Made by a program: the position numbers and the translations under genes. The notes under the pieces were generated by a model. It was not told the origin of the DNA, did no database searches, and saw nothing but the letters and a program-made list of their open reading frames with translations. 59,849 nucleotides of DNA from Alphaproteobacteria bacterium (GTDB lineage Bacteria > Pseudomonadota > Alphaproteobacteria > Rs-D84), in the NCBI GenBank assembly GCA_017631895.1, contig JAGBSK010000003.1, positions 1 through 59,849 of the forward strand, written 5' to 3'. Positions 3,931 to 59,702 of the stretch are shown here, one piece after another; the first letter of the stretch is position 1, and the number at the start of each line of letters is the position of its first letter.

Positions 3931-4028
3931 TAAATTATAATGACCTATCTGCACGCGGTGCCGACAACTCATGTAGCGTTTGTACATTACGTTGTCGGCA
4001 CTACGTGCATCTAAATCATTCTAATTCA
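3931..4028. repeat. Conserved-core hairpin element, copy 1
   Basis: TAAATTATAATGACCTATCT-GCACGCGGTGCCGACAAC-TCAT-GTAGCGTTTGTACATTAC-GTTGTCGGCACTACGTGC-ATCTAAATCATTCTAATTCA. Confidence 0.9.
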
Positions 4029-4067
4029 TTTTTTACCAAGCAAGGGGTTGGGCAGGGTGGATTTTGT

Positions 4068-4095
4068 TTGACAATATTTTATTTTGTGCTATGCT
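4068..4095 (+). promoter_or_regulatory. Sigma70-like promoter for fabD
   Basis: TTGACA-N16-TATGCT with extended -10 TG. Confidence 0.5.
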
Positions 4096-4104
4096 TTCGT
4101 TGCT

Positions 4105-5070
4105 ATGCAAGAGAAGATAATTTTTGTTTTTCCGGGTCAGGGGGCGCAATATGTTGGTATGGGCGCCGATATTTGTCGTGAATTTGCGTCGGCTTGGTAT
4201 GTTTTTGAACAGGTGTCCGATATTGCAAAACGTGATATGGCGAAAATTTGTTTTGATGGACCCCAGTCTGAACTGAATACGCCGGAAAACACATCGTTGG
4301 CAACTTTTACCCATTCTGTTGCCATTGCCCATGTAATCGAAAACGAATATGGCATGCCATTGCATACACTTGCATATGCTATGGCGGGACATTCAATGGG
4401 GCAATATTCTGCGTTGCACTGTGTGGGCAGCATGAAAATCACGGATGCGGTTCAGATGTTGGCGGCGCGGGCGACCTATATGCAAAATGTCGCGGGCGAA
4501 GGTGGAATGGCCGCAATTGTTGGACTGGGCAAGGATGAAATTGAACAATGTATGGTGGCTGCCGCAGGTCTGGGGTATGCCCAGATTTCAAATCATAATG
4601 CCCGCGACCAGTTTGTTATCAGTGGGCATAATGTGGCGTTGGATGCAATCGTAGAAAATGCACAAAAGCGTGGTGCGCGTATTGCAAAACGTCTGAATGT
4701 TGCGGTGCCGGCACATTGCGCGTTGATGAGTAATGCTGAAAAATTATTGCGTGCACGAATGGATTCAATTTTGTTTGAAGCACCAAAAACAAATTGGTAT
4801 TCAAATCAGACGGCAAATTTTATGTCAAATCCGCGTGATGTACGTGATGCGTTGTGTAATCAGATGACGCATGGTGTGCGATGGGCGGATATTATGGAAA
4901 CTTTTCCAACGTATAACATTACCCGTGCCTATGAGTTGGGGCCGGGGCGTACGTTGACTGGTTTGATTAAGCGTGCAAATGTTGGTTGCGTATCTCGTCA
5001 AACGGATACGGCATCAAATGTGCGGACTGTGTTGCGTGAAATTGGCGATATTTTGATAAAGTCGCGTTAA
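4105..5070 (+). CDS. fabD: Malonyl CoA-ACP transacylase
   Basis: FVFPGQGAQYVGMG, GHSMGQY nucleophile motif, VAVPAHC, ELGPG. Confidence 0.95.
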   Translation: MQEKIIFVFPGQGAQYVGMGADICREFASAWYVFEQVSDIAKRDMAKICFDGPQSELNTPENTSLATFTHSVAIAHVIENEYGMPLHTLAYAMAGHSMGQYSALHCVGSMKITDAVQMLAARATYMQNVAGEGGMAAIVGLGKDEIEQCMVAAAGLGYAQISNHNARDQFVISGHNVALDAIVENAQKRGARIAKRLNVAVPAHCALMSNAEKLLRARMDSILFEAPKTNWYSNQTANFMSNPRDVRDALCNQMTHGVRWADIMETFPTYNITRAYELGPGRTLTGLIKRANVGCVSRQTDTASNVRTVLREIGDILIKSR

Positions 5071-6338
5071 TTGTTTTTATTAATTTTTTTGCGCAAAGTA
5101 TCCCAATATTCCAGTCTTTTTTTGATTTCGCGTTCGAATCCACGTTCAACCGGTTCGTAAAACTTTTTGCGTCCCATGGATTCTGGGAAACAGTTCTGAC
5201 CGGAAAATCCGGTTGTAGTATCCGGGTCATATACATAGCCCGCATTATATCCCAAATTTTTCATCATTTTGGTTGGTGCGTTCAGGATGTTTTTTGGGGG
5301 CATTAAACTGCCTGTTTCGCGGGCGCATGCGTATGCCGCCTTTTGTGCGCGATAATTGCCAATGCTTTTTGGGGCGGTCCCCAGGTATATTACCAATTGC
5401 GTCAGGGCAAGGTCGCCTTCGGGGCTGCCCAATCTTTCATATGCCTGCCATGCGGCAATTGCGATTTGCAATGCGTTTGGGTCGGCCAGGCCCACATCTT
5501 CGACCGCAAATCGCGTCAGGCGACGGAATATGTACATTGGGTCCTGGCCCGATGTCATCATGCGGGCGGTCCAATAAAGGGCGGCGTCTGTATCACTTGC
5601 GCGCAGGGATTTGTGCACCGCGGATATTAAATTATAGTGTTCGTCGCCATGTTTGTCTGATAATGGTGCGCGTTTCTGTACGGCGGAATCCAGGGCGTCG
5701 GGTGATAATGGTTTCTTGAAATTTGCATTAAACAGATATTCAACCGTGTTCAGTAAAAAGCGTGCGTCGCCGTCCGCCATCTGGGCCAGGTGTGTTCGCG
5801 TTTCATTTTCTAGTGGTAATTTTTTATCAATAAATTCTTCGGCGCGCCCCATTAATGTCAACAGGTCTTCTGTGGACAATGGTTGCAGAACACCAATATG
5901 ACAACGTGATAATAATGCGTTGTTCAAATTAAAACTGGGGTTTTCGGTTGTGGCACCAATGAATACGACTGTGCCATCTTCCAAATATGGCAGCAGGGTG
6001 TCCTGTTGCGTTTTGTTAAATCGGTGGATTTCGTCTATGAATAATAATGTTGCGCGTCCAATGTCGCGGTTCATGCGGGCGGCATCCATTGCCTTTTTAA
6101 TGTCGGCGGTGCCAGAAAAGACCGCGGACATTGGCACAAAGTCCATGTCAACAGAATTAGCCAATGCGCGTGCAATTGTGGTCTTGCCACACCCGGGCGG
6201 TCCCCATAAAATCAAATTAGATAACTTTTTATTGTCAACCATACGACGGACCAGACCGTTTTCGCCCAACAGGGTGGTTTGCCCGATAACTTCGTCTATT
6301 GTGTTTGGGCGCATTAAATCGGCAAGTGGTCGTGTCAT
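5067..6338 (-). CDS. rarA: Replication-associated recombination protein A (MgsA family AAA+ ATPase)
   Basis: RPLADLMRP, GPPGCGKTT, IDEIHRFNKTQQD, ATTENPSF, ISAVHKSLR. Confidence 0.95.
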   Translation of the reverse strand: MTRPLADLMRPNTIDEVIGQTTLLGENGLVRRMVDNKKLSNLILWGPPGCGKTTIARALANSVDMDFVPMSAVFSGTADIKKAMDAARMNRDIGRATLLFIDEIHRFNKTQQDTLLPYLEDGTVVFIGATTENPSFNLNNALLSRCHIGVLQPLSTEDLLTLMGRAEEFIDKKLPLENETRTHLAQMADGDARFLLNTVEYLFNANFKKPLSPDALDSAVQKRAPLSDKHGDEHYNLISAVHKSLRASDTDAALYWTARMMTSGQDPMYIFRRLTRFAVEDVGLADPNALQIAIAAWQAYERLGSPEGDLALTQLVIYLGTAPKSIGNYRAQKAAYACARETGSLMPPKNILNAPTKMMKNLGYNAGYVYDPDTTTGFSGQNCFPESMGRKKFYEPVERGFEREIKKRLEYWDTLRKKINKNN

Positions 6339-6408
6339 TTTACTTGGCTTTTATTTAGTGTTCATTTGTGGTATAATTATATTATTAAATTATAAAGGAA
6401 TTGGCAAG

Positions 6409-6765
6409 TTGGTAAATAAAAATTCTGAATTTACGCTGGCGGTTGCTAATCTGGCGGCGGCGGCGATAAATGCAAATCCAAAGTTGACTATGGAGCAGGC
6501 GGTTAAAAACGCGCGCGAGATTTTACGCGGTACGTCCGTCACGCCACAGCAAATCGAAGATTCTGTGATGCCAGATAAAATTCAATGTCTGGAAGATGGT
6601 ACGTGGCATGTAATGTTGCGACGCTATATCAAGCGCAGATTTAATCTGACCCCGCAACAGTATCGTGAAAAGTGGGGATTGCCTGATGATTATCCGTTTG
6701 TGGCACCTGCGTATGCGCGCAAGCGGTCAAAAATTGCAAAAAAAACAGGATTGGGGAAAAAATAA
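6409..6765 (+). CDS. MucR/Ros family transcriptional regulator
   Basis: CLEDG...LTPQQYREKWGLPDDYPFVAPAYARKRSKIAKKTGLG; probable TTG start behind AAAGGA. Confidence 0.85.
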   Translation: MVNKNSEFTLAVANLAAAAINANPKLTMEQAVKNAREILRGTSVTPQQIEDSVMPDKIQCLEDGTWHVMLRRYIKRRFNLTPQQYREKWGLPDDYPFVAPAYARKRSKIAKKTGLGKK

Positions 6766-6766
6766 A

Positions 6767-8644
6767 ATGGCAGAAAAATTTAAAAAAATTGTAAATTTTC
6801 CACACAAGGCTTTTGGGCGTGCAAGCCAGGCAATCATGCGTATGCACCCAGATAAATGGTATGGGAAAGTAGCCAAGGGGGCGGGGTTGACCATGACGGG
6901 TTTGGCTCAGTTTTTATTCTGGGCGACGAAATATATTACGTTGGACAATCATGCGTTGCGTGCGGGCGAGAAAAAACTGCGTAATATGCAGGTTGGTAAA
7001 AATAAAAAAGGCGAAAATAAAAAATTACAGGAATTTATGAAACGATATCCGAATTTTTCGTCGCATATGATTTACTATATGTTAATCGCATCAATCGCGG
7101 GTGGAATCAAGGCGGGGGTGGAAATTTCTGATTTAGTTGAACAGGTAAAAATAGAACGCGAAGCCGAACGTGCAAAACGGGGTACGTATGCAGAATACCT
7201 GGATAAAATGCGGGGGGCGTTGCCGTATTTGGTGGCGGACCTGATTGCCAAAGAAGGGGTGCGTGTTAACGAGCAGGGAATGCATATTCCATATCTGGAT
7301 GGACGTGGGGTTTGGACAATTGGTTTTGGTTCGACTATGTTAAAGGACAAGACCAGTGTTACGCCCGATACGCCACCAATCACAACCCAAGAGGCATACG
7401 AGTTGGCTTGTTGGCATATTATGGAAAATGAAACTTTGTTCAGGCTGTATTGTTATGATGTGGCGTTTTCTGATGTTGATATAAGTCGGGTGGGGGAACT
7501 GATTGCGTTATCGTCGGCGACATATAATGTTGGTACTGATTTAATAGAACAACCAAAGATTAATGGGAAAAGAAATCGTAAATACGAGGAACGTTTTGCA
7601 GAACTGGATAAACTGCATGCGCAGTATGGTAATGCAATTACAAATGATATGGTGCGGGAAGTGTTTGCAAAATATCCCGTCCTGCATATGACGTCGGTTG
7701 GCGAAGCTTGGTTAAAAGGGGGGGGTGAAGATGAAGTCGCCAATAGTTTAGGGAACTATTTGAAAGGTGGGAATGGTTTAAAATGGCGCAGATGGCTGGA
7801 AGCCCAGGTTATGAAAGGAAACATACAACCAGAAGTTTTTTTGAATATTCCCGTTGGTGGGTTCTATGAATTTTACAAGATTGTTGGTGATAAACGTGAA
7901 AACTGGTTCGTTGAAAAGAATGGTAAACGTACAGTCAATGATGAAACCTTGGTGCGTTTTAATCAGTGGCTTGCAAATCCAGTAGATAAATATGGGCATC
8001 CGTTGGTCGGTAATAACTGGAAACATGTGTCCGATTGGTTGCCGGCGGACATTGCACAGCAATGTTTGGCGGGTAAATGTGAAATCGGTGCGCCAAGTAT
8101 TTGGGACAAGGTATTAAAGTCTGATAAGAAAAAGAAAGAGGCTGAACAGGTTGAAATTAAAACCTATGTTATTGGTTATGATGAATTATATGCTGATGCG
8201 CTTGGTGCGTATCGGGCGGGGGATTTTAATGCAGCCGCGGAAAAATATCAGAATATGATTGCGCAATACCCAGATAATGCTTTGTTGCGTAATGATTTGG
8301 CGGCGACATATAATAAACTGGGTAAATATAATGAAGCAATTGCCCAGGCACGCGAAGTGGTTCAGCGTATTGGTGATAAATCTCAGTATGGTGCCGCACA
8401 ATATAATGCGGGTTTTGCGTATGAACAATTGGGAAATTTACAAAAGGCGCTGGCGAATTATAAATTGGCACTGGCAAATGGAAATCGACGAGTTCAGGCA
8501 GATATTACACGTGTTTCTGAAAAGTTGAAACAGGTTGGTAATAAAAAGATGGCGTTTAATGCAGGGGTAAAACAAATTCATCAGAAAAATGCAAAAAAGG
8601 ATTTGTTGCTGTATGGGCAGGAATTCAAGGGAAATATGGCATAG
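6767..8644 (+). CDS. Membrane-anchored GH24 (phage-type) lysozyme with C-terminal TPRs
   Basis: KEG...PYLDGRGVWTIGFGS, TYNVG and GLKWRRWLEA lysozyme motifs; N-terminal hydrophobic segments; TPR-like repeats near the C-terminus. Confidence 0.75.
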   Translation: MAEKFKKIVNFPHKAFGRASQAIMRMHPDKWYGKVAKGAGLTMTGLAQFLFWATKYITLDNHALRAGEKKLRNMQVGKNKKGENKKLQEFMKRYPNFSSHMIYYMLIASIAGGIKAGVEISDLVEQVKIEREAERAKRGTYAEYLDKMRGALPYLVADLIAKEGVRVNEQGMHIPYLDGRGVWTIGFGSTMLKDKTSVTPDTPPITTQEAYELACWHIMENETLFRLYCYDVAFSDVDISRVGELIALSSATYNVGTDLIEQPKINGKRNRKYEERFAELDKLHAQYGNAITNDMVREVFAKYPVLHMTSVGEAWLKGGGEDEVANSLGNYLKGGNGLKWRRWLEAQVMKGNIQPEVFLNIPVGGFYEFYKIVGDKRENWFVEKNGKRTVNDETLVRFNQWLANPVDKYGHPLVGNNWKHVSDWLPADIAQQCLAGKCEIGAPSIWDKVLKSDKKKKEAEQVEIKTYVIGYDELYADALGAYRAGDFNAAAEKYQNMIAQYPDNALLRNDLAATYNKLGKYNEAIAQAREVVQRIGDKSQYGAAQYNAGFAYEQLGNLQKALANYKLALANGNRRVQADITRVSEKLKQVGNKKMAFNAGVKQIHQKNAKKDLLLYGQEFKGNMA

Positions 8645-8670
8645 GTTCCTGAGGAAAAGGATAAAAAAGT

Positions 8671-10886: not shown

Positions 10887-10890
10887 GTTT

Positions 10891-28466: not shown

Positions 28467-28542
28467 GGATGCGTAGCTCAGTTGGTAGAGCAACTGACTC
28501 TTAATCAGTGGGTCCAGGGTTCGAGTCCCTGCGCGTCCACCA
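28467..28542 (+). tRNA. tRNA-Lys (CTT)
   Basis: 76-nt cloverleaf; anticodon arm ACTGA-CTCTTAA-TCAGT; GGTTCGAGTCC T-arm; encoded CCA. Confidence 0.97.
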
Positions 28543-28692: not shown

Positions 28693-29304
28693 ATGAAAAA
28701 ATTAGCAATTTCAACACTAGCGGTGCTGATTGCGTGTCCTGCGTTCGCGATGAATCATCCAGACCAGGGTAGCAGTTGGACCATGTGGGGGTTGGATCCA
28801 TATGTTGGATTAAGAGGCGGTATGAGTTATACCAATCTGAACTATAAATACGAGGGTGACAAGGAATCTATGACAGATTATATTTTCCAGGGTCGTGCCG
28901 CATTAGGTTTGGAAGTTTGTGATACTGTTCGTTCTGAAATCGAATGGTCTTATTTTGGTAAATTGTCAGACCAGCAGAATTTTGGTTCCTTTGGTGCAAT
29001 TGATGTGGAAACAAAATTGCAGACTTTGTTGTGGAATTCTTATTGGGAATACAGCGCGTACAAGGTTGTTCGACCTTTCGTAGGCGCAGGTGTTGGTATG
29101 GCGTTTGCAGATGTTAAACGTCATGGCGACTTGATTCCACACCACAGCGAAAGCAAAACCCGTGTTGCAGCACAGGCATCTTTGGGTATGACATTTGATA
29201 TGGAACGCTTTGCGGTTGATGTCGCGGCGCGTTATACTTATGTTGATATTCAATCTGGGTTGCATAACTTTGGTGGTGATGTCGGTATTAGATTTATGTT
29301 CTAA
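28693..29304 (+). CDS. Small outer-membrane beta-barrel (OmpA-TM/opacity-like)
   Basis: Signal peptide; RPFVGAGVG; C-terminal GIRFMF. Confidence 0.85.
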   Translation: MKKLAISTLAVLIACPAFAMNHPDQGSSWTMWGLDPYVGLRGGMSYTNLNYKYEGDKESMTDYIFQGRAALGLEVCDTVRSEIEWSYFGKLSDQQNFGSFGAIDVETKLQTLLWNSYWEYSAYKVVRPFVGAGVGMAFADVKRHGDLIPHHSESKTRVAAQASLGMTFDMERFAVDVAARYTYVDIQSGLHNFGGDVGIRFMF

Positions 29305-29309
29305 TATGC

Positions 29310-29337
29310 AAAAATCCCGCGAGAGCGGGATTTTTTT
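29310..29337. terminator. Intrinsic terminator
   Basis: AAAAATCCCGC-GAGA-GCGGGATTTTT. Confidence 0.85.
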
Positions 29338-29458
29338 AATGCATGAGATAAATAGATGAATGTTTGATATATCCAGATTATAGTGTCCAGTATTAACAAA
29401 TCCCCCTATGTCCACCCACGCAAACATTTGTTTGTGCGGGGCCCGGGTGGGGGATTTG

Positions 29459-35461: not shown

Positions 35462-35537
35462 GGCTAGGTAGCTCAGTTGGTAGAGCAAGGGACTGAAAAT
35501 CCCTGTGTCGGCGGTTCGATTCCGTCCCTAGCCACCA
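35462..35537 (+). tRNA. tRNA-Phe (GAA)
   Basis: 76-nt cloverleaf; anticodon arm AGGGA-CTGAAAA-TCCCT; GGTTCGATTCC; encoded CCA. Confidence 0.97.
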
Positions 35538-43586: not shown

Positions 43587-45215
43587 ATGAGAAAGTCATT
43601 AAAATTTTTAGTTCTGTGCGGTGTGATTTTGGCATCCCTGACAGGTTGTGCCAAGCGTGAGTCTGCCAAGGTTGCGGCATCTGTAGATCAGGATTTTATT
43701 AATGCATATGATGCGTTTGAAATGGCAAAAAATCCACGTGCCAAGGTGGCAAGTGGCGATACCGTTTCTATGTCCGAGGGTATTTGGTTGGGAAATAAAT
43801 CGATGGTGTTGGAACATCGTAATAACCTGCCGGCTAAATTTGAAACGGACACGGGTGTTACCATTTTGTTAAATGAACCTGTGTCTTTACAGGTTTTGGC
43901 AAATGATATTTATTCAATTACGGGTATTCCTGTCAAAATTGATGGTCAGGTATCGTCTGATAAATTAAAGAAATTGGTTAATGTTGCATATACAGGTAAA
44001 TTGTCAGGACTGTTAAGTCAGGTCGCGACGGATTTAGATTTGCTGTGGTATTATGATAAAAGTTCGATTGTTTTCTATGAAACAGAAACCAAGACATTTA
44101 CTTTGTACGCCCTGGGGACCGAGGTTGCGTATCAGACATCTGTGTCCACAGATAACTCAAACGAAGTATCATTGGAATCTACATTAAAAGAATGGGACGA
44201 GGTTGAAAGTGCTATAGAATCTATTATTGGCAAGGCCGATAATGCAGATTTTACTGTGTCGCGCAGTTTGGGAACAATTACTGTGACCGCATCGCCATCG
44301 ATTTTGGCGCGTGTTGGTGATTATATTGAACGTCAAAATAAACGTCTAAGCCAATTGATTACAATTGATGTCAAGGTTTTACAGGTTACAATTTCAAATG
44401 ATTCTGCGTTTGGTTTGAATCTGGCGGCGGCTATTAATTCTACGTCGGGACTGAATATTGTTGCAAATCCAAAGAACAACCTTGCGTCGACCGAGGCAAG
44501 TTCGATGAATATTGCCGTGTTGTCGAATACTGTGTCTGCCCTGACCGGTGCGACACATATGGAAGGCAATTCTGTGGTTGATGGTGCGTACACAAACGAC
44601 CAAATTATGAATGGGTCCTTGTCTGGTGCTGCGGGCAGTAATGCATTGATAGAAGCATTGGCAAAGCAGGGCAAGGTATCGTTGGTTACAAATGTTGGTG
44701 TGACCACACGTTCAAATCGTGTTGCACCGGTCAGCAATACACGTACAACGGGCTATATCAAACGTTTTGAATCGCGCAACTTTACAACTGTTGAATCCAG
44801 TACGGTTGATCAGGATGACTTGGAAACAGGATTCACAATGCAGTTGTTGCCGAATGTTCTGGAAAATGGAAAAATCTTGCTGTTGTTCCGTATGTCGGTG
44901 CGCGAATTGTTGCGTATGTCAACCCAGACAATCGGTGAAGTAACCCTGCAGTTGCCCGAGGTTGAAGAACGTTCTTTCATGCAAGAAGTAATTATGGAAT
45001 CTGGTCAGATGTTGGTTGTTTCAGGCTTTGAAAAGCAGACCAGCGAAGATACCCGATATGGTTTGGGCGATCCTGACTTTATGGCGTTGTCGGGTTCCCG
45101 TGAAACATCGGCCACGCGTGAGGTTTTGGTTGTTATCTTGACGCCTCAGGTTTTGGTCAGCCCGATGGATGTTGAGAGGAGTATTCAGCAGCACTGGGGT
45201 GCGCCTCTAAATTAA
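43587..45215 (+). CDS. Lipidated secretin, type IVb pilus PilN/BfpB/TcpC-like
   Basis: Lipobox LTGC; GTITVTASP, IDVKVLQV, G.TMQLLP, SGQMLVVSGFE, VILTP. Confidence 0.85.
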   Translation: MRKSLKFLVLCGVILASLTGCAKRESAKVAASVDQDFINAYDAFEMAKNPRAKVASGDTVSMSEGIWLGNKSMVLEHRNNLPAKFETDTGVTILLNEPVSLQVLANDIYSITGIPVKIDGQVSSDKLKKLVNVAYTGKLSGLLSQVATDLDLLWYYDKSSIVFYETETKTFTLYALGTEVAYQTSVSTDNSNEVSLESTLKEWDEVESAIESIIGKADNADFTVSRSLGTITVTASPSILARVGDYIERQNKRLSQLITIDVKVLQVTISNDSAFGLNLAAAINSTSGLNIVANPKNNLASTEASSMNIAVLSNTVSALTGATHMEGNSVVDGAYTNDQIMNGSLSGAAGSNALIEALAKQGKVSLVTNVGVTTRSNRVAPVSNTRTTGYIKRFESRNFTTVESSTVDQDDLETGFTMQLLPNVLENGKILLLFRMSVRELLRMSTQTIGEVTLQLPEVEERSFMQEVIMESGQMLVVSGFEKQTSEDTRYGLGDPDFMALSGSRETSATREVLVVILTPQVLVSPMDVERSIQQHWGAPLN

Positions 45216-45310
45216 ATCTTACGGCATATCTAAAGCGAATTGTGGGTGTCTCATGTAGCGTTTGTACACTACGACACCCACAATTCGTTTATCTATACCG
45301 TCATCTTTAA
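45212..45310. repeat. Conserved-core hairpin element, copy 2 (overlaps the secretin stop)
   Basis: TTAAATCTTACGGCATATCT-AAAGCGAATTGTGGGTGTC-TCAT-GTAGCGTTTGTACACTAC-GACACCCACAATTCGTTT-ATCTATACCGTCATCTTTAA. Confidence 0.9.
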
Positions 45311-45409
45311 TTTAACTTAAAGTGTACGCGGGTTTGTATGCATCTATACCTTTAATTTTTTATTTGACAGAATTTGATTTTGGTCTAAAATTACCTAAAA
45401 GGATTTTGT

Positions 45410-49740: not shown

Positions 49741-49741
49741 T

Positions 49742-53778: not shown

Positions 53779-53829
53779 AATCTTTATGATAGAATATAAT
53801 ATATTAAATAGCAAATAAGAGGTTTTTCA

Positions 53830-54294
53830 ATGAATCAAGAATCAGGTCGTTCTATGATTGAAATGTTGGGTGTGTTGGCAATTATGGGGGTTATTACCGT
53901 TGGTGCAATCGGTATGATTTCAACAGCAATGCGTACACAGAAATTGACAAGTGTTAATGACCAAGTGGTTCAGATGGTGACTATGGTGCGCAATATTCAT
54001 GGCGAATATGATGATTTTTCTAATATGAATGGGACTACGATTTTTGGTGCAATTGGTATGAGTAATAAGAATCCATATGGTGGTAATTATACTTTGTCGG
54101 TTGATCCGTCTAATCCACGTCAATTTATTGTTGGTATTGATGGTTTGGGGCAAAGTGAATGCGAATCGCTGGTGGCCAAGGCGTGGTCTGATTCAGTTGG
54201 GTATCAATTGTCTGGGGGCAAGCAGGGTGGTGCCACAGGTTCGTGCAAGGGGACGAATGGAACTAATTCTGTTCAGATTGTTTATGGCGAATAA
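53830..54294 (+). CDS. Type IV prepilin-like protein
   Basis: MNQESG/RSMIEMLGVLAIMGVITVG: Gly at -1, Glu at +5, hydrophobic helix; NPYGG; C-terminal Cys pair. Confidence 0.8.
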   Translation: MNQESGRSMIEMLGVLAIMGVITVGAIGMISTAMRTQKLTSVNDQVVQMVTMVRNIHGEYDDFSNMNGTTIFGAIGMSNKNPYGGNYTLSVDPSNPRQFIVGIDGLGQSECESLVAKAWSDSVGYQLSGGKQGGATGSCKGTNGTNSVQIVYGE

Positions 54295-54324
54295 TTTGTG
54301 ATTTTATGCCAAGTGGGGGCGCAG

Positions 54325-55296
54325 ATGGCAGATTTTATTACTGTTTCCAAAGTAGAAGATGGGACGCGTTTGTTGCGGTGGTTTTTGCGCCAGTTTCCGT
54401 CTATGCCACAACGGGAATTTTACAAGTTGTGTCGTGGTGGACAGATACGCGTTAATTCCAAGCGTGTAAGGGGAACAGAAATTCTGCGCGAGGGTGATGC
54501 GGTGCGTGTGCCACCAACCATTGTGGGCTATGCGAATGCGGGACCAAAGAAAACAGAAAGTGGCGAACATTTTTCTTTGGCTGATCTGGAAGAGTTGCGT
54601 AAGTGTATCATTCACAATGACGCGGATGTTGTGGTATTTAACAAGCCCGCCGGACTTGCGGTGCAGGGCGGAACCGGTATCAGAAAGTCAATTGATAAAA
54701 TGGCGGCGGCATTGTTCCCGTATGATAAGATTGCGTTGGTGCATCGATTGGACCGCGAAACAAGTGGAATCTTGGTCGTTGCGAAAAATCAGCGGGCGGC
54801 ACAGAATCTGGCGGCGCAATTTCAAAATAAAACCGCACACAAGGAATATTTGGCACTGTTAAATGGTGATGTTAATCCACGCAGTGGTGTGATTGATAAC
54901 TTTATGTTAAAGGGGCAGGTGTTCGATAATCCGACGCGTTTGAATAATGGAACGGGGCCGCGTCCGCAACGTGCAATTACGGAATATAGCCTGTTGTCAA
55001 ATGCTGCGGGTTGTGTGTCGTGGGTGCGATTTTCGCCGAAAACCGGGCGTACACATCAGTTGCGCCTGCATAGTGCGTTTTCGTTAAATGCGCCGATTGT
55101 TGGTGATAATTTGTATGGCGGGCGTTGTATGGTTGATGGTCCGCTGGGCAGTGTGTTGAAAACAAATAACTTGTTTTTGTTTGCGTATAAGTTAACATTC
55201 CAACACCCTGCAACGGGTCGTATGATAACATTGCGGGCGACGGTACCGGAATTTATGGTGCCTGTGATGCGGTTCTTGGAATTTAAGTTGCCATGA
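54325..55296 (+). CDS. RluA/RluC family pseudouridine synthase
   Basis: S4-like N-terminus; NKPAGLAVQGG, VHRLDRETSG, TGRTHQLR. Confidence 0.92.
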   Translation: MADFITVSKVEDGTRLLRWFLRQFPSMPQREFYKLCRGGQIRVNSKRVRGTEILREGDAVRVPPTIVGYANAGPKKTESGEHFSLADLEELRKCIIHNDADVVVFNKPAGLAVQGGTGIRKSIDKMAAALFPYDKIALVHRLDRETSGILVVAKNQRAAQNLAAQFQNKTAHKEYLALLNGDVNPRSGVIDNFMLKGQVFDNPTRLNNGTGPRPQRAITEYSLLSNAAGCVSWVRFSPKTGRTHQLRLHSAFSLNAPIVGDNLYGGRCMVDGPLGSVLKTNNLFLFAYKLTFQHPATGRMITLRATVPEFMVPVMRFLEFKLP

Positions 55297-57359
55297 AGGT
55301 AAGAAAAAGTATTTTTTTTCCAATTGTTAGAATCCTGGGGTTGTTCGTCATAGGGTTGGTGGTGGCTATTGTTGTAGCGTTCAGCCAGATAAACTTGGAA
55401 TCTTTGCGCGGGAATTTGTTATCTATTTTACGTGATGCGACGGGAATGCCTGTTGAAATTGATGGTGCCGTTTCTTGGAAGTTTTCATTGCGGCCGCATG
55501 TTGAATTGAATCAGGTGCGTATTGCAAATGAGTCTTGGGCAAAAAATAAATATGCGTTTAGTGCGGAAAAAATTGATGTGCGGTTGAATTTAATATCGCT
55601 GTTTCGGGACAGACCAACAATTCAAAATGTCAAAGTTTATGATGCAAAAATTAATATAGAAAAAAATTCCGCGGGTCAGTATTCTGTGACGTCGTTGGCA
55701 AAGAAAGCGGACGAGGCAAAGACCGAAAATTCGGTACCTGATAAGTATCCATTCAAGGATGCAGGTCTGGGTGGGGTAGAGGTAAAAAATCTGAGTGCAA
55801 ATATTTTAGATGAAAAATATTCATTGGCGGGATTTCATATAAGGTCGATGCCACGTAAAGTGGGGCGTGAATATTCGGGTTGGGTTAAGGCTGATAAAGA
55901 TGTGTTGCCCTTTATTTTGCAATTTGGTGAATATAATTCAGAGCGAAAAATTTATCCGGTTCAGGTGGCTTTGTCCACAGGGGGGGACGCGTTAATTGCA
56001 AATATTGCGTTGGAAGGTACCAGCAAAGCCCCAATTGATTTTATTATCAAGGGTGATATTCCAAAGCCATCAATAATTGGCGAAATATTTGGGTTGGATT
56101 TGCGTGATGTGCCGTCGTTGCGATTGAATGTTGCGGGTGGATTTGATTGGAAAAAGATAACATTGCGGAAATCGGTCGTGCGTGTGAATAATACAGAATT
56201 TACAGTTTCAGGTGATTGGGATTGGGCTAAGGTAGGTGGCGCGCTGAATGTAAATATTAAATCGCCAAATGTTGATTTGGTGGATTTGTTCCCGGGGCTT
56301 TATGCGGGGACGGGTGTGCGCGAAAATCGCGAATTAAATGTATTCAAAGATATTCCGCTGTTTGGCAAATATTTATATGGACGCACGGTCAATGCGCATG
56401 TGCGTCTGGGCAAGTTGGTAATGTATCGGGATTTCAGTTTGGATGATTTGGATTTGGTCGCATCCTTGCGTGATAATCGTGCGCGGATTGATATTGATAC
56501 AGGTATCGCCCAGGGGAATATAGAAATAGGCATTGATGCCGATTTAGAACAAAATGGGCAAATCACATTGCAGGCGGCGGCAATTGGTGAACGGATTTAT
56601 GTTGGTGAAATCTTGCGCGCGGTGCACAAGACCGATTTCTTGTCTGAATTGCCAGTTAATGTGGAATTCTATGTTCGTGCAAATGGGGAAAATCTGTCCC
56701 AGGTTATGCAGACCATAACGGGGCCTGTTTATGTGTATTCTGTGGCGCCGGGGTATGCGCATTCTGCGCTGGTGTCGTATATGTATGGGACTGATTTTTT
56801 AACGTCCCTGCGGCATAGTGTTCAGGATTTGTTCAGTTCAGAAAAAAAGTATAATCAGATTAAAATTTCATGTGTGGCGGTTAATGTTAATCTGCGTGAT
56901 GGGTTGATAGAAACGCAGAATGGTGTGGCGATTGAAACAAATGCGATTAACGTTCGTTTGGCGGGTATGTTGGATTTGGGTGATGAAGAAATGAAATTGG
57001 CATTGACGACCGTGCCGGTTCGTGGGTTGAAATTGTCTTTGACAGGGAATGTTGTAAATTCGATTGAGTTGACAGGAAATCTGGCCGAACCGACCGTGCG
57101 TATTAGTGGTGCCGCCGTTGCGGGCAAGGTTGCGTCTGCCACCGGGTTGGGATTGTTGTTGGCGCCGTTTACGGGTGGTATTGGACTGGTCGCGGGGACG
57201 GGTATTGGTTTGGTTGCGGGGGATTTGTTGGAAAATTGGTTGGCGGATGGGAATCCGTGCGAAACGGCAATGGAACGTGGTGCGCCACTGTATCGTGATG
57301 ACCCGGAATGGATGGCGGTGCCAATGGCGGATTTGGTTAATTCTGTTTTAAAAAAATAA
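55293..57359 (+). CDS. AsmA family protein
   Basis: N-terminal TM anchor; ATGMPVEIDG; extended beta pattern; LTGNLAEP near the C-terminus. Confidence 0.78.
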   Translation: MKVRKSIFFPIVRILGLFVIGLVVAIVVAFSQINLESLRGNLLSILRDATGMPVEIDGAVSWKFSLRPHVELNQVRIANESWAKNKYAFSAEKIDVRLNLISLFRDRPTIQNVKVYDAKINIEKNSAGQYSVTSLAKKADEAKTENSVPDKYPFKDAGLGGVEVKNLSANILDEKYSLAGFHIRSMPRKVGREYSGWVKADKDVLPFILQFGEYNSERKIYPVQVALSTGGDALIANIALEGTSKAPIDFIIKGDIPKPSIIGEIFGLDLRDVPSLRLNVAGGFDWKKITLRKSVVRVNNTEFTVSGDWDWAKVGGALNVNIKSPNVDLVDLFPGLYAGTGVRENRELNVFKDIPLFGKYLYGRTVNAHVRLGKLVMYRDFSLDDLDLVASLRDNRARIDIDTGIAQGNIEIGIDADLEQNGQITLQAAAIGERIYVGEILRAVHKTDFLSELPVNVEFYVRANGENLSQVMQTITGPVYVYSVAPGYAHSALVSYMYGTDFLTSLRHSVQDLFSSEKKYNQIKISCVAVNVNLRDGLIETQNGVAIETNAINVRLAGMLDLGDEEMKLALTTVPVRGLKLSLTGNVVNSIELTGNLAEPTVRISGAAVAGKVASATGLGLLLAPFTGGIGLVAGTGIGLVAGDLLENWLADGNPCETAMERGAPLYRDDPEWMAVPMADLVNSVLKK

Positions 57360-57374
57360 GTAGGGGAAAAAAAT

Positions 57375-58133
57375 ATGTTTGATTGGGTTGGAATGGTGCA
57401 AATTCTAATTATTGCGGTATTGATGTATATGTTTTATCGCAGTTTTATTCAGAATACCCAGTCTGAAAAACTGGTGCGTGGGTTGTTGGGGTGGGCGGGG
57501 CTCTGGGTGCTTAGTTTTGTGTTGCCGTTGGTTCATTTGAATTTGCTTGCAACATTTATGCATTATACGGCATTGTTCTTGTCGTTAAGTTTGATTGTTG
57601 TTTTTCAGCCTGAATTGCGCAAATTTATGGCGTTGATGGGCAATGTTCAGGGGTTGCGTCGTATGCTGAAAGCGGGCGCGAATCGCAAACAGGATACGAA
57701 ATCTTTGGATGCGATTGTAAGTGCGGTTGAATATATGTCGGGTAAGCATACGGGGGCTTTGATTGTTTTTCCAACCAGTCTGGATGAAAGTGCAATTGAT
57801 AAAAAGGGTGTTGCAATTGATGCAAAAATCAGCAGCGAGTTGTTGTTGACGATTTTCTTTAATAAAACACCATTGCATGATGGGGCGGTAATAATTGAAA
57901 ACAATCGTATCGCGTATGCGGGTGGGATTTTGCCACTCTCGCAAAATAATTTGAACTGGAAATATGGTACACGTCATCGTGCCGCCTTGGGACTGAGTGA
58001 GGTTTCCAGTGCGGTGGTTCTGGTTGTGTCCGAAGAAAGTTGCGATATTTCCATTGCAGAACGCGGTAAGATTACAAAATATGATGATATTAAAAAGTTG
58101 CGCGCCAAATTAGAAAAGGTTTTGTATAAATAA
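57375..58133 (+). CDS. cdaA: Diadenylate cyclase (CdaA/DacA type)
   Basis: Three TM helices; VVFQPELR, GALIV, TPLHDGA, GTRHRAALG, VVSEE. Confidence 0.92.
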   Translation: MFDWVGMVQILIIAVLMYMFYRSFIQNTQSEKLVRGLLGWAGLWVLSFVLPLVHLNLLATFMHYTALFLSLSLIVVFQPELRKFMALMGNVQGLRRMLKAGANRKQDTKSLDAIVSAVEYMSGKHTGALIVFPTSLDESAIDKKGVAIDAKISSELLLTIFFNKTPLHDGAVIIENNRIAYAGGILPLSQNNLNWKYGTRHRAALGLSEVSSAVVLVVSEESCDISIAERGKITKYDDIKKLRAKLEKVLYK

Positions 58134-58229
58134 ATTATAATAATCAATCTACGAACGAACCCGCAACCTCATGTAGCAATTTGTACACTACGGTTGCGGG
58201 TTCGTGCGTATCTTAATCATTCTAATTTA
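58131..58229. repeat. Conserved-core hairpin element, copy 3 (begins at the cdaA stop)
   Basis: TAAATTATAATAATCAATCT-ACGAACGAACCCGCAACC-TCAT-GTAGCAATTTGTACACTAC-GGTTGCGGGTTCGTGCGT-ATCTTAATCATTCTAATTTA. Confidence 0.9.
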
Positions 58230-58279
58230 TTTCTACTCTACTGCTAGGAGTATGGGGGGCGATTTTATCTTTTTTTGTT

Positions 58280-58348
58280 TGTTCTTTTGGTCTTGCACCG
58301 AATCGGGGTTTTTTGGTAAAGTGGGAACAAAAGAGTGTAGGATACACA
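58280..58348 (+). promoter_or_regulatory. Promoter/leader of dnaN, duplicated at 59781-59849
   Basis: TTGCAC-N18-TAAAGT; identical 39-nt and 22-nt blocks recur 1501 bp downstream. Confidence 0.7.
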
Positions 58349-58377
58349 AATACATATAAGGAAACAGGAGTCTTATA

Positions 58378-59496
58378 ATGGAATTTTCAGTGTTTCGTCA
58401 GGTTTTGATACGTGCGCTGGGGCATATGCAGTCGATTATGGAAAAGCGCGCGACATTGCCCATTTTGATGAATGTTAAGATAGAAGCCGCAGATGATTTG
58501 ATTCTGTCTGCGACAAATGTGGATTTGGAATTGGTTGAACATGTTGCTGCCGATATTACCCTGGGGGGCAAAATTACCGTTCCTGTTCAGATGCTGTATG
58601 ATATCGTTCGTAAATTGCCAGATGATGCGGAAATTTCATTTAAACAGTCTGGCGACCAATTGGTTGTGTCAAGTGGTCGTGCAGTATTCCGTTTGCCAAC
58701 ATTGCCGGCGGAAAATTTCCCAGCTATGGCGGGCAGCAATCTGACCACAAAATTCCAGATGACAACGGGTGATTTGGCGCATTTGATTAATCAGACCAAA
58801 TTTGCAATTCCAACGGATGATGTGCGTTATCATTTGGGCGGTATTTATTTCCATATCGCAGAAGAGGGTGAAGAAAAGAAATTGACCGCTGTTGCAACGG
58901 ATGCCCAGCGTATGGCGCTGTGTGCGATGCCGGCCCCAGCGGGCAGTGCAGATATGCCATCTGTTATTTTGCCGCGTCGTGTGATTGGTGAATTGTCCAA
59001 GTTGTTGGAAGATGCCAATGTTGATGATGTTTTGGTTGAATTGTCTGATACCAAGGCGCGTTTTACAGTCGGTTCTGCAACATTGACCAGCAAATTGGTT
59101 GATGCGCAATATCCAAACTATCGCGTCGTGATTCCAAAGGGTAATGATAAAATCGCAATCCTGGACAGAAAACAGTTTATTAATGCGGTGGACTTGGTGT
59201 CCGTTGCAAGTGTTGATAAAACAAAGTCTGTTCAGTTGACGTTCAGTATGAATAAATTGGTTATTAATGCGTCTAGCCCAGATGCCGGTACCGCGACCCA
59301 GGAATTGGATATTGAATACAATGGTGATGCGTCGTTTACGGTTGTGTTTAATGTAAAGTTCTTGTTGGATGTCGCCGGTCAGGTCGAAGGCGAAAAGTTC
59401 CAGATGGAAATGCAGGACCCATTGGCGCCAACGAAAATCAATTCGGTCGACAAAGATACGGATGCATTGTATGTGTTAATGCCAATGAGAATGTAA
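58378..59496 (+). CDS. dnaN: DNA polymerase III beta sliding clamp
   Basis: TLPILMNV, SATNVDL, VATDAQRMA, SKLVDAQYPNY, YVLMPMRM. Confidence 0.96.
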   Translation: MEFSVFRQVLIRALGHMQSIMEKRATLPILMNVKIEAADDLILSATNVDLELVEHVAADITLGGKITVPVQMLYDIVRKLPDDAEISFKQSGDQLVVSSGRAVFRLPTLPAENFPAMAGSNLTTKFQMTTGDLAHLINQTKFAIPTDDVRYHLGGIYFHIAEEGEEKKLTAVATDAQRMALCAMPAPAGSADMPSVILPRRVIGELSKLLEDANVDDVLVELSDTKARFTVGSATLTSKLVDAQYPNYRVVIPKGNDKIAILDRKQFINAVDLVSVASVDKTKSVQLTFSMNKLVINASSPDAGTATQELDIEYNGDASFTVVFNVKFLLDVAGQVEGEKFQMEMQDPLAPTKINSVDKDTDALYVLMPMRM

Positions 59497-59500
59497 AAAA

Positions 59501-59598
59501 TAATTTATAATAATTCATCTAAAATCAAATCGGGCATCTAATGTAGCGTCTGTACACTACGATGCCCGATTTGGTTTTTTCTAAATCATTTTAATTTA
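59501..59598. repeat. Conserved-core hairpin element, copy 4
   Basis: TAATTTATAATAATTCATCT-AAAATCAAATCGGGCATC-TAAT-GTAGCGTCTGTACACTAC-GATGCCCGATTTGGTTTT-TTCTAAATCATTTTAATTTA. Confidence 0.9.
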
Positions 59599-59603
59599 TT
59601 TCA

Positions 59604-59702
59604 TAAAATCTAATGGCATATCTGCGGGCGGTATCGTCTCCTCATGTAGCGGTATGTACACTACTGGGACGGCGCTACGTACATCTATATCATTATGATT
59701 TG
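59604..59702. repeat. Conserved-core hairpin element, copy 5 (tandem with copy 4, degenerate stem)
   Basis: TAAAATCTAATGGCATATCT-GCGGGCGGTATCGTCTCC-TCAT-GTAGCGGTATGTACACTAC-TGGGACGGCGCTACGTAC-ATCTATATCATTATGATTTG. Confidence 0.85.

Follow-up and report, generated by a model that had tools for sequence, protein, structure and literature searches.

Background

Palindromic repeats of about 100 to 150 bp populate small or host-associated genomes, and among them the Correia/NEMIS elements of Neisseria, ERIC, RUP and the Rickettsia palindromic elements are co-transcribed with their neighbours and form long RNA hairpins. These families are defined by their conserved ends, and the Rickettsia elements often lie inside genes. 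We know of no mover for the Rickettsia elements, nor, in any of the four families, of an absolute strand rule or a systematic placement on stop codons. The attC sites of integrons are defined by structure, follow gene ends and undergo recombination as folded single strands; their orientation relative to replication matters.

Single-stranded, strand-aware biology is likewise to be expected of the RAYT enzyme family, going by the accounts drawn on here (10.1101/279083, PMC3116915). IS608 and ISDra2 are described as inserting into, and excising from, the lagging-strand template by means of hairpin recognition (10.1101/279083), and RepB of pMV158 as nicking 5'-TACTACG/AC-3' on the loop of the IR-I hairpin (PMC1851628).

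Here we compare with these systems a hairpin family from the genus Candidatus Enterousia, starting from one 59,849-nt stretch of DNA, analyzed whole and called the window below. An earlier note, made from the letters of the window, had described five copies and their fold; the position at stop codons and terminators, the orientation with GC skew and the confinement to a single chromosomal zone go beyond that reading and are new here.

Results

Copies in the window and in the genus

The elements of the window, with covariance-model scores, and the DNA that follows them are:

3923..4036, + strand: copy 1, full length, type I-like outer arms, core 3971-3990, 122.8 bits; 5' end directly after the TAA (3924-3926) of a 245-aa ORF (3189-3926)
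45204..45318, + strand: copy 2, full length, type II outer arms, core 45253-45272, 106.8 bits; the TAA of a secretin-domain gene (43587-45215) lies within its initial bases
58123..58237, + strand: copy 3, full length, type I, core 58171-58191, 111.6 bits; 5' arm overlapped by the last codon and TAA of a CdaA-like gene (57375-58133)
59493..59606, + strand: copy 4, full length, type I, core 59541-59560, 108.8 bits; begins 2 nt past the TAA of dnaN (58378-59496)
59607..59699, + strand: copy 5, type II, core 59644-59664, 60.8 bits over model positions 12-103
59712..59849, + strand: non-element DNA in which the dnaN promoter/leader region occurs again (cf. 58240-58330)

The core pattern ATGTAGC-N3-5-TGTACAYTAC has five matches in the window, all on the + strand, and none in 100 dinucleotide-preserving shuffles. 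With filters off, the covariance model returns the same five elements and no others, copies 1 to 4 at full length (107-123 bits) and copy 5 as a partial match (61 bits), and scores the sense strand about 60 bits above the antisense. Pattern search and model thus agree that the five elements first reported are real and correctly placed. As RNA, copies 1 to 4 fold into a single long hairpin (-33.6 to -45.3 kcal/mol), while copy 5 pairs more poorly (-25.0 kcal/mol). Copy 5 stands in tandem with copy 4, its left outer arm truncated and its inner stem poorly paired; the contig end that carries it looks like a repeat-mediated join, with a loose end at 59601, and its placement is uncertain because that end is possibly chimeric. 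The segment at 59712..59849 is the version of the dnaN leader found in relatives (compared with L130 and L131) and points to a duplication or to an assembly join made through repeats. One RNA-library contig, 608 nt long, covers the 3' part of cdaA and all of copy 3; it is a contig only, for which DNA carry-over is possible.

The source genome (G000; 686 kb, 66% complete) holds some 18-29 family copies, 13 of them recovered by the exact core and 18 by profile. The genus, a group of gut alphaproteobacteria with genomes of about 1 Mb, has covariance-model matches in 102 of 121 genomes; matches are weak in sister genera and absent from all 19 genomes of a neighbouring family (f3) in the same order. 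No Rfam family fits, in keeping with the earlier note's failure to recognize one, and blastn of copy 1 against phage and plasmid collections gave no match. It is plausible, if a little short of probable, that the family is a lineage-restricted, non-autonomous palindromic element of about 105 nt per unit.

Fold and covariation

From the outside in, each unit consists of AT-rich pairing outer arms, a small internal loop, an inner stem of 18-19 bp and an asymmetric, near-invariant apex. The outer arms pair like terminal inverted repeats. In two of three arm types the internal loop sets ATCT opposite ATCT, so that the layout once taken to be common to all copies holds for those two and fails for a third type, which lacks ATCT (examples are G000 C16:11056-11163, L030, L123 and L156). 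In the apex, TGTA pairs with TACA as a mini-stem, the loop has 7 nt, and TCA and, on the 3' side, CTAC(G) form bulges. An apical pairing of GTAG with CTAC was rejected: the variants GTAAC and GTATC..CACATC map to loop or bulge, and TGTA/TACA is for that reason the best supported pairing.

Among 104 copies, paired cells amount to 95.2%, against 76.1% after shuffling (0 of 500 shuffles as high) and 39-45% in slid controls, and double changes are found at 17 of 17 inner-stem pairs. Mean pairwise identity is 0.92 in the core, 0.79-0.81 in the outer arms and 0.48-0.49 in the inner arms. The pairing values and double changes bear out the earlier proposal that fold, spacing and apical core are conserved while the stem changes with compensation; the arm length of 18, at times 19, likewise extends across the whole alignment. 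The ruler that the earlier note read into this spacing is putative: the constancy may be a matter of inheritance, indels having been lost because they bulge the stem. The accompanying claim that the 18-nt arms are unrelated and free does not survive, as related sublineages run through the 104 copies and three copies in G000 (copy 2, C35:7079-7185 and C35:12848-12954) have an identical inner hairpin. Inner-stem mismatches of G.U and A.C type stand at 78:43, or at 48:42 minus one lineage-specific column, a ratio that leaves selection on RNA and on DNA unseparated.

Exchange between copies

Chimeric elements with non-pairing arms are present, their breakpoints lying at the conserved core, as are tandem arrays in which left arms are truncated. 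At one site common to G000 and G024 the basal 10 bp are the same and the apical 8 bp have been swapped in both arms. The earlier note had argued that a recently copied MITE would not show such variation; the sublineages, identical intragenomic copies, arrays, chimeras and core-centred block swaps contradict that argument, so that a large part of the seemingly free variation goes back to old divergence of lineages combined with exchange between copies.

Strand and chromosomal zone

Element orientation agrees with the sign of the local GC skew in 171 cases (112 loci), disagrees in none and is ambiguous in two, although these are not 171 independent events, because most sites are orthologous and lie within one zone. 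In G000, a sense core follows within 130 nt downstream of 14 of 235 leading-strand genes and of 0 of 162 lagging-strand genes; co-orientation of genes on the element-bearing contigs is merely 112:87. One model match, G064:C16:157252-157367, lies on the other strand from the remaining matches listed for its contig.

Genome G123 carries 17 copies within C2:31-221 kb, one on C3 and none on the 489-kb C1. Six of the seven element-bearing contigs of G000 map to its C2 or C3, and C35 to the first 34 kb of C1. For other species, 140 of 165 elements map to the G123 zone, 136 of the 140 in the same orientation. A second strongly skewed zone of G123 (C1:0-200 kb) and the whole of the other arm are free of copies. 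A purely fork-coupled, genome-wide mechanism would not predict these empty zones, and local hopping is an added assumption. The absolute strand rule (171:0) speaks for the earlier suggestion that the active form is a folded single strand; this would be single-stranded DNA, with a putative coupling to the replication fork.

Stop codons and the terminator slot

For 88 of 95 lead elements, a co-oriented frame of at least 80 aa ends between -12 and +3 nt of the 5' end, and TAA is the stop in 87 of these 88 genes; a convergent stop comes equally near the 3' end in only 13 of the 95. The neighbouring genes, cdaA, dnaN and the secretin gene, are of conserved housekeeping type. The sites lie in, or slightly ahead of, the slot of the intrinsic terminator. 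Downstream of dnaN, elements occupy 15 of 30 orthologous loci, and most of the 15 element-free loci have a GC stem and T run at the same spot, directly past the stop. Junction offsets at this site vary among lineages, and L156 has an element of arm type III there, which indicates repeated independent insertion. Downstream of cdaA, a small native hairpin with its T run is retained behind the element in G060 and G024 and has decayed in G000; the element was therefore truly inserted, and the old terminator was lost later. Several loci show no further hairpin and T run between the element and the next promoter. The elements may act as terminators of transcription. The ordinary terminators of the genome, AAAAATCCCGC-N3-4-GCGGGATTTTT, are symmetric and serve both strands. 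No target-site duplication could be established around the elements, and the flanks of 44 isolated copies are unconserved.

Search for a mover

The earlier note saw no cognate enzyme in the window, and no cognate enzyme emerged there or in whole genomes from the families searched. PF01797 (Y1/RAYT) is present in 1 of 61 genus genomes. TnpB, IS110, rve, DDE_3 (IS630-type) and Rep_OBD (RepB-type) each gave 0 of 5 in searches of five high-copy, 96-98% complete genomes; a search for IS91 also gave 0 of 5 high-copy genomes, a zero that carries no weight, as its control likewise returned no match. Tyrosine recombinase matches in five genomes resemble Xer pairs and phage integrases. A 201-aa protein of four transposase-type helix-turn-helix motifs has strong matches in 23 genomes, 22 of which belong to the 37 genomes that carry 14 or more elements, an association confounded by relatedness; with this query the protein is missing from 15 of the 37, and its long relatives have no catalytic domain. 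We tentatively infer a nuclease or host factor that would recognize the apex.

Discussion

Our tentative preference, held at slightly less than even confidence, is for a strand-specific palindromic mobile element orphaned of its enzyme, akin to a REPIN or MITE and tolerated or used as a terminator. Such an element would move, or would formerly have moved, as a folded single DNA strand with the apex as the recognized feature. Entry would be restricted to the G-rich strand, the lagging-strand template, from which a fixed orientation and a bias towards short hops along one replication arm would follow. Surviving insertions would be those between the TAA of a co-directional gene and its intrinsic terminator, a placement that would work because the first bases carry TAA in three frames and the A- and T-rich ends mimic a terminator. 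The old terminator may then decay, leaving the element as the 3' hairpin of the transcript. Later evolution would proceed by exchange between copies, with conversion tracts centred on the core and unequal exchange producing arrays, and by changes that preserve arm complementarity. Overall, the earlier interpretation is upheld in part: it holds for fold, spacing, core, Rfam, REP and enzyme, its folded single strand is favoured, and it gives way in its argument about recent MITEs.

Spread may instead have been free of enzymes, with no dedicated transposase at any time: nascent strands would switch template at lagging-template hairpins, from terminator position to terminator position, guided by microhomology in A/T tracts and followed by homologous exchange, and quasi-palindrome correction, one arm templating the other, would keep the arms complementary. 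The failure to find the tested enzyme families, save one Y1 gene in 61 genomes, would then be natural, as would elements exactly at the sites of native terminator hairpins, ends that blend into A- and T-rich tracts, a single orientation, clustering in one zone, chimeras broken at the core and tandem arrays with truncated left arms; near equality of G.U and A.C mismatches (48:42 without one column) is expected if pairing is restored mechanically. However, a genus-wide apex identity of 0.92 despite drifting stems is left unexplained, switching at symmetric native terminators on both strands should also hit lagging-strand genes, whereas 88 of 95 elements abut a co-oriented stop, and at cdaA the unit did not replace the native terminator, which stayed intact, but was added ahead of it. 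We regard this account as unlikely, if well worth keeping in view. The probability is also low, though appreciable, that the element acts chiefly at the RNA level, as a 3'-UTR module selected in each host gene, its mobility secondary or extinct, in which the hairpin would terminate transcription or protect the message, and loop and bulges would bind a protein such as a ribonuclease or RNA chaperone. Invariable sense orientation directly past the stop codon argues for it, together with the terminator position, at several loci without another hairpin and T run before the next promoter, strong covariation, and orthologous sites that keep fold and core while types and stems exchange; the 608-nt RNA-library contig over copy 3, where DNA carry-over is possible, is a weak hint. 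Yet an RNA function does not explain why 0 of 162 lagging-strand genes carry a sense copy or why the elements keep to one zone, 19 of 121 genus genomes have no element and bear ordinary terminators at the same sites, G.U is not in excess over A.C with one column set aside, and units with non-pairing arms persist in arrays.

The conservation peak at the centre rather than the ends makes a classical MITE of a TA-targeting, IS630/mariner-like cut-and-paste DDE transposon very improbable, as do an absolute orientation unexpected for such an element, the lack of a conserved TA in the flanks of 44 isolated copies, and DDE_3 and rve each at 0 of 5 high-copy genomes. The outer arms would be its terminal inverted repeats, the TA of TAA stops its target and the central hairpin a passenger; the two or three types of outer arm do act as inverted repeats and show paired changes, a TA can be read by eye on both sides of window copies 1 to 4, and 87 of 88 stops are TAA. 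The helix-turn-helix protein, 22 of whose 23 strong-match genomes are among the 37 with at least 14 elements, could speak for it too, but its long relatives have no catalytic domain, this query misses it in 15 of the 37, and relatedness confounds the link.

Comparison with known systems

REP and REPIN sequences, as described in the sources cited, are likewise short extragenic palindromes in many copies, single or clustered, with intragenomic sublineages, a GTAG tetranucleotide and compensatory changes that keep the hairpin (10.1101/279083, PMC3116915). The GTAG of a REP lies 0-2 nt 5' of a basal stem of 7-20 bp, whereas that of the element is apical and, on the opposite strand, precedes just a 4-bp mini-hairpin. 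A REPIN consists of two inverted REPs with conserved feet, the element of a single long hairpin, roughly 50 bp, whose loop is conserved. As GTAG does not lie at the base of a 7-20 bp stem and Y1 occurs in one of 61 genus genomes, the earlier separation from REP/RAYT is upheld. IS200/IS605 elements and their miniature derivatives, in the accounts drawn on here, resemble the family in being hairpin-dependent, with an orientation tied to the lagging-strand template, and in needing no obvious target duplication; insertion beside a short motif would fit the adjacency to TAA. They differ in having two different subterminal hairpins at their ends, where the element has one apical motif in a near-perfect palindrome, and Y1 occurs in 1 of 61 genus genomes and TnpB in 0 of 5 high-copy genomes. 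Rolling-circle origins are similar in that the hairpin tip holds a conserved, unpaired motif and the stem need only pair, and CACTACG on the 3' side of the apex agrees with six of the seven bases that precede the pMV158 nick in the source cited, which could be chance (PMC1851628). The elements differ in being chromosomal, dispersed and without an adjacent rep gene, and Rep_OBD is at 0 of 5 high-copy genomes.

From the Correia, ERIC, RUP and Rickettsia families, as generally described, the element is set apart by having its centre most conserved. Like attC sites it is structure-defined, at gene ends and orientation-bound relative to replication; unlike them it forms no cassette arrays, and the earlier note reports the attC end motifs absent from the window elements. 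Intrinsic terminators differ in lacking a conserved 24-nt apex, a single orientation and a restriction to leading-strand genes, and the element is five times longer, with an outer, AT-rich helix that separates its GC-rich stem from the T run. The two are nevertheless alike in starting a few bases past the stop and in their succession of A-rich 5' flank, hairpin and T-rich 3' flank, and at half of the orthologous dnaN loci the element stands in place of the ordinary terminator.

Hairpin elements in the window

The window carries five copies of a hairpin repeat of approximately 105 nt, in which AT-rich outer arms enclose a variable inner stem of 18-19 bp and a conserved apex, or core:

3923-4036, plus strand, copy 1
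45204-45318, plus strand, copy 2
58123-58237, plus strand, copy 3
59493-59606, plus strand, copy 4
59607-59699, plus strand, copy 5 (partial)

The five elements that the earlier note had described from the sequence alone were recovered in full. The core pattern matches the window five times, always on the plus strand, and never in 100 shuffles, while a covariance model built from element copies and run with its filters off returns exactly these five, four of them full-length at 107-123 bits and the fifth partial at 61 bits. The antisense score lies about 60 bits below the sense score, and each copy folds into one long hairpin. Upstream, copy 1 has an unknown ORF of 245 aa, copy 2 the gene for a secretin-domain protein, copy 3 that for a CdaA-like cyclase, and copy 4 dnaN.

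The end of the window calls for caution. Past copy 4, the stretch 59604-59849 holds copy 5 and then, in the last 140 bases of the window, a second dnaN promoter/leader (compare 58240-58330) that follows the sequence version of two relatives, G006 and G024; what comes after the dnaN element in relatives is the promoter of the next gene. A contig from RNA-library run X7 departs from the window at 59601, after copy 4, and continues into sequence matching that after the dnaN element in G024 (locus L130). Given this departure and the second leader of the relatives' version, the contig end may be a repeat-mediated join; the window end after copy 4 probably reflects either a mixture of strains or a contig end made chimeric through the repeat. 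No contig covers 59696-59849 in the two best DNA runs, which is evidence neither way, and the joints from 58232/58235 to 59507/59533 are repeat-induced. Copy 3 is spanned by one RNA-library contig, a record from which transcription and 3' ends cannot be read.

Fold, covariation and exchange among copies

An alignment of 104 distinct copies, comprising the five from the window and 99 of 100 unique full-length copies from fetched loci (the remaining, shorter copy from L073 was excluded), yields a consensus fold of four helices and 32 pairs. Paired cells reach 95.2%, against 76.1% in column shuffles (0/500 as high) and 39-45% when the partners are slid. Double changes occur in 17/17 inner-helix pairs and in 7/11 outer-arm pairs. 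The outer helices, which have the form of the terminal inverted repeats of a miniature inverted-repeat transposable element (MITE), are 97.6% and 98.4% paired and show paired changes between arm types. In pairwise comparison the core (25 columns) averages 0.92 identity, the outer arms 0.79-0.81 and the inner arms 0.48-0.49, and the apical 4-bp helix TGTA/TACA is invariant.

Several structural claims of the earlier note need revision on this larger sample. An apical pairing of GTAG with CTAC is not the preferred one, since TGTA/TACA stays unbroken in the loop variants GTAAC-TTC and GTATC...CACATC. The internal loop of ATCT opposite ATCT holds for two of three outer-arm types and is lacking in the third. 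Nor do the inner stems vary freely, as had been proposed: they fall into sublineages common to several species, in which the base of the stem shows compensatory differences of a graded kind, and the same inner hairpin is found in three copies of the source genome.

Some units combine arms of different sublineages that are unable to pair, and in tandem arrays a full unit comes first and those behind it lack the left outer arm. At the site orthologous to copy 1, the source genome and G024 have the basal 10 bp of the stem in common and differ in the apical 8 bp of both arms, a swap that a core-centred conversion tract would produce. Mismatches of the G.U and A.C types stand at 48:42 with one column removed, a near-equal ratio that separates neither RNA-level from DNA-level selection nor selection on pairing from the templating of one arm by the other.

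A short G-rich motif with GCAAGG(G/A)G occurs just 5' of secondary array units and after some single elements (L082 735-760, L098 5953-5975, L132, L138 and window 4034-4060); it may be a remnant of native terminator hairpins or a second repeat module.

Distribution among genomes

The source assembly (686 kb in 46 contigs, 66% complete) contains 13 exact-core copies, 18 profile matches and 27-29 model matches, partial units included. A core-pattern scan of species-representative genomes found at least 116 stretches; among the 80 matches listed, nearly all belong to Candidatus Enterousia or to uncultured Alphaproteobacteria/Rickettsiales records, from animal and human guts. Within the genus, 102/121 genomes have a model match, with 1 to at least 30 copies each, the per-genome counts being lower bounds; some of the 19 genomes without a match are 96-100% complete. 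A model search at the level of the order was positive for 30/36 genus genomes. It gave only weak matches in three sister genera of the same family (2, 7 and 1), one marginal match in a second family and none in the 19 genomes of a third, neighbouring family.

Four outlier genomes (Gracilibacillus, Reichenbachiella, a Chloroflexia MAG and a Saprospiraceae MAG) and five viral contigs carry the bare core with no model match and were dismissed as chance matches. Phage and plasmid collections gave no blastn match to copy 1. The main text of a study of reduced Enterousia genomes (PMC12306168) does not mention repeats, palindromes, transposition or terminators.

Placement behind stop codons

Position was assessed with 95 full-length units from the fetched loci, each isolated or first in its array, using gene calls from simple ORF heuristics. 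In 88/95, a co-oriented open frame of at least 80 aa has a stop ending between 12 nt inside and 3 nt before the first conserved base, and that stop is TAA in 87/88. Any frame running into the element must stop, because its first bases hold TAA in three frames; the informative part of this adjacency is that a gene reaches the 5' end of the element and not its 3' end, where a convergent stop lies equally near in only 13/95.

Downstream of dnaN, 15/30 orthologous loci carry one to three units, and most of the other 15 have an ordinary GC stem and T run directly past the stop, in the same place. Junction offsets at this site vary by lineage and one distant relative has the third arm type, so insertion there took place more than once. 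The cdaA-dnaN interval holds units in 4/18 loci, G006 having three units; those of G060 and G024 have like outer arms and unlike inner stems. In these last two genomes a small native hairpin and T run persists after the unit, and its left arm is gone in the source genome. The unit thus inserts between stop and terminator, the old terminator then being free to decay. The position of the element and its A/T-tract architecture fit an intrinsic terminator.

Ordinary terminators of the source genome are stereotyped, AAAAATCCCGC-N3-4-GCGGGATTTTT. They serve genes on both strands, often begin right at the stop codon and are shared by convergent gene pairs. Examples are:

C43:3580, source genome, ordinary terminator
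C16:7230, source genome, ordinary terminator
C5:6399, source genome, ordinary terminator
29304-29345, window, ordinary terminator

A second dispersed intergenic repeat, composed of GAGATATGAGA-like short direct repeats followed by a AAATAAAAGTTTA motif, was seen in all zones of a near-complete relative (G123). It often stands just past an ordinary terminator, for example downstream of C1:426512-428911 and of C2:76035.

Strand rule and chromosomal zone

Replication direction is taken here by proxy, from GC skew and gene strand. In the source genome, 18/18 elements run along the G-rich strand of their own contig, where genes are co-oriented in a ratio of only 112:87. A sense core lies within 130 nt downstream of 14/235 leading-strand genes versus 0/162 lagging-strand genes. 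Five lagging-strand genes have an antisense core downstream; the cases checked are mostly convergent partners of a leading-strand gene, with C35:12848 as an exception. Across 112 loci of many species, 171 elements agree with the sign of the local skew, none disagrees and two are ambiguous, figures that do not count independent events, as neither the elements nor the relatives are independent. The skew is not merely transcriptional, since in the window it remains positive through a block of minus-strand genes. One model match in G064 (C16:157252-157367, E 2.6e-15) may break the orientation rule, as it lies on the strand opposite to the other matches listed on its contig.

G123, fetched whole in three contigs, has 17/18 of its elements in C2:31-221 kb and one in C3, all in a single orientation and in strongly negative skew. 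Its 489-kb C1 has no elements, though the first 200 kb are equally strongly skewed. Judging by the switches in gene strand, the origin may lie near C2:240 kb and the terminus near C1:200 kb; the elements would then occupy the part of one arm closest to the origin. Six of the seven element-bearing contigs of the source genome map to C2 or C3 of G123; the seventh, C35, carries two elements and matches the initial 34 kb of C1. Among the elements of other species, 140 of the 165 mapped fall in the G123 zone, 136/140 in the same orientation.

The skew itself is uneven, about half of the genome having |skew| of 0.13-0.29 and the other half being near 0 (in G123, C1:200-489 kb and C2:240-370 kb). The contigs of the source genome amount to 330 kb with |skew| of at least 0.1 and 356 kb below, and both skew signs occur on each of the five contigs of G127, a copy-free relative.

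Search for a cognate enzyme

The Y1/RAYT transposase family (PF01797) was found in 1/61 genus genomes, with a control positive in 6/14 reference genomes. The sole gene is:

G044 C6:33971-34330 (L127), IS200/IS605-type Y1 transposase

No model match lies near this gene and no hairpin element occurs in the 3.4 kb fetched around it. Searches for TnpB, IS110, rve, IS630-type DDE_3 and RepB-type Rep_OBD, run on five high-copy, 96-98% complete genomes per search, each gave 0/5. A search for IS91 (Y2) likewise gave 0/5 and is uninformative, as its control found nothing anywhere. Tyrosine recombinases are present in all five, as expected for Xer and prophage integrases.

Reverse transcriptases were considered as the mover and rejected: their genes occur in 4/5 high-copy genomes with no element near, are absent from G123, which has 18-34 copies, and were not found in the source genome by tblastn. 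Those of the relatives look like diversity-generating retroelement or defence types. Three of them (L158 1261-2334, minus strand, L159 and L160) have lengths of about 345-360 aa and are directly preceded by a small ORF, and a pair of 148-nt repeats with 88.5% identity in L160 (3037-3184 and 3396-3543) has the look of a template repeat and a variable repeat, as in diversity-generating retroelements.

Comparison of G123, with many copies, against G127, with none, left 138 of 831 G123 ORFs with no G127 match, 58 of which are present in the source genome. We annotated the 25 of these 58 that have at least 150 aa and a near-full-length, well conserved match in the source genome; 11 have no Pfam family. 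The sole nucleic-acid-related protein among them has 201 aa and four transposase-type helix-turn-helix (HTH) motifs:

C2:10742-11335, source genome, four-HTH protein
C1:277681-278283 (L209:17678-18283), G123, four-HTH protein
C19:31779-33599 (L280), G064, four-HTH protein

It has matches in 30/121 genus genomes, 23 of them strong, and 22 of the 23 fall among the 37 genomes with at least 14 elements, with almost none in the other 84, a link to copy number that is confounded by relatedness. Fifteen high-copy genomes lack the protein, and its longer relatives consist of helix-turn-helix repeats throughout, with no catalytic domain. We treat it as a lead, nothing more. Low-copy genomes carry relatives with more repeats (341-383 aa). 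In G064 the gene is present as three tandem paralogues, and in G060 it adjoins a Mg-chelatase/ComM-like gene.

Proposed nature of the element

Mobility and termination are here readings from sequence comparison. What fits best is a non-autonomous palindromic element that would act as a folded single strand. This reading draws on the asymmetric conserved tip set on a stem that needs only to pair, the single orientation along the G-rich strand, the clustering on one arm, and insertion by a short A-rich motif with no clear duplication. The element would enter the lagging-strand template in the manner of IS200/IS605, lacking the enzyme of that family, and would survive only where it is harmless, between the TAA stop and the terminator of a co-directional gene. 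There its A-rich and T-rich ends and long hairpin could replace the terminator. After insertion, copies exchange segments, and the complementarity of the arms is held either by selection or by one arm templating the other.

As to what moves the strand, a tentative and rather improbable proposal is that the apex is where an as yet unrecognised nuclease or recombinase acting on single-stranded DNA, or else a host replication protein recruited to the role, recognises its target and cuts. The whole hairpin would then be moved by peel-and-paste at the replication fork, precisely into the TAA stops of co-directional genes, its own terminator brought along; that the four-HTH protein is the DNA-binding partner of such a factor is a side possibility. 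Enzyme-free spread by template switching at hairpins would account for the missing enzyme and for the chimeric units, but it leaves the conserved tip and the sense-only placement unexplained, and we think it unlikely. The sense placement and the fold would also follow if the repeat were primarily an RNA-level 3'-UTR module, a doubtful explanation that gives no reason for its absence behind lagging-strand genes or for its regional limit.

Least probable, and by our estimate very unlikely, is a TA-targeting DDE MITE. The arms do resemble inverted repeats, and TA can be read, by eye only, at window copies 1-4. The ends are A/T-rich, and across the flanks of 44 isolated elements no dinucleotide is conserved; a TA duplication is not general. 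The single orientation is a misfit, and no parent with the same ends and a transposase was found, rve and DDE_3 being at 0/5 each and the source genome having no half-matches of the element flanking an ORF.

To our knowledge, small palindromic repeats are common, yet outside REP/RAYT few families have a known mover or a known reason for their placement. The genomes of the present family are very small, about 900 genes, and the rules it obeys are unusually clean: a tip conserved on a pairing-only stem, insertion at stop codons, absolute orientation, confinement to one arm, and usual transposases that were not found. The search space for the responsible factor is therefore small. If the element moves as folded single-stranded DNA with no Y1 enzyme, this points to an enzyme of a new kind or to a host replication factor serving as transposase; should the apex-factor proposal be true, the transposition system would have a new class of enzyme and harmlessness built in. 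If the element is immobile, it clearly exemplifies how a selfish or recruited hairpin can take over from terminators, and how arms can stay complementary with no obvious RNA-type selection. The element is also a practical marker of strand and replication direction in fragmented Enterousia assemblies.

Comparison with known repeat families

The earlier note had not recognised the family and had named Rfam as a place to look. At gathering thresholds nothing there fits the element, and the only matches in the window are two tRNA genes:

28467-28539, plus strand, tRNA gene
35462-35534, plus strand, tRNA gene

At E<=1 the only further matches are plant miRNA-precursor hairpin models, which reach 25-34 bits where 160-211 are needed, and a Leptospira sRNA model, which reaches 25.7 bits where 197 are needed. 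The element presumably resembles the Correia or Rickettsia-type palindromic repeats. Integron attC sites have conserved end sites and extrahelical bases and come with an IntI integrase and an array of cassettes, whereas the neighbours here are conserved housekeeping genes.

HUH enzymes cut unpaired motifs at hairpin tips. The RepB protein of pMV158 has its nick sequence borne on a loop, and in CACTACG, on the 3' side of the tip of the element, 6/7 bases before the pMV158 nick are identical (PMC1851628); the six-base match may be due to chance.

REP sequences are defined by GTAG or GTGG placed 0-2 nt 5' of a fully paired basal stem of 7-20 nt (10.1101/279083). The element is extragenic, palindromic and multi-copy, with clusters, as REPs and REPINs are, but its GTAG is not at the foot of the hairpin: on the plus strand it sits in the apex, between the 18-bp stem and the loop, and on the minus strand it is directly 5' of only the 4-bp TGTA/TACA mini-hairpin. 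With GTAG misplaced and a cognate Y1 transposase in 1/61 genus genomes, RAYT/REP membership was rejected. The IS200/IS605 family enters the lagging-strand template (10.1101/279083), and the element shows the same orientation bias, with skew as the proxy; of the enzymes of that family, Y1 TnpA is in 1/61 genus genomes and TnpB in 0/5 high-copy ones. By analogy, the element would work most like REPINs or the single-strand elements of the IS200/IS605 type, and we file it as an enzyme-orphan, strand-polar hairpin repeat in the terminator slot.
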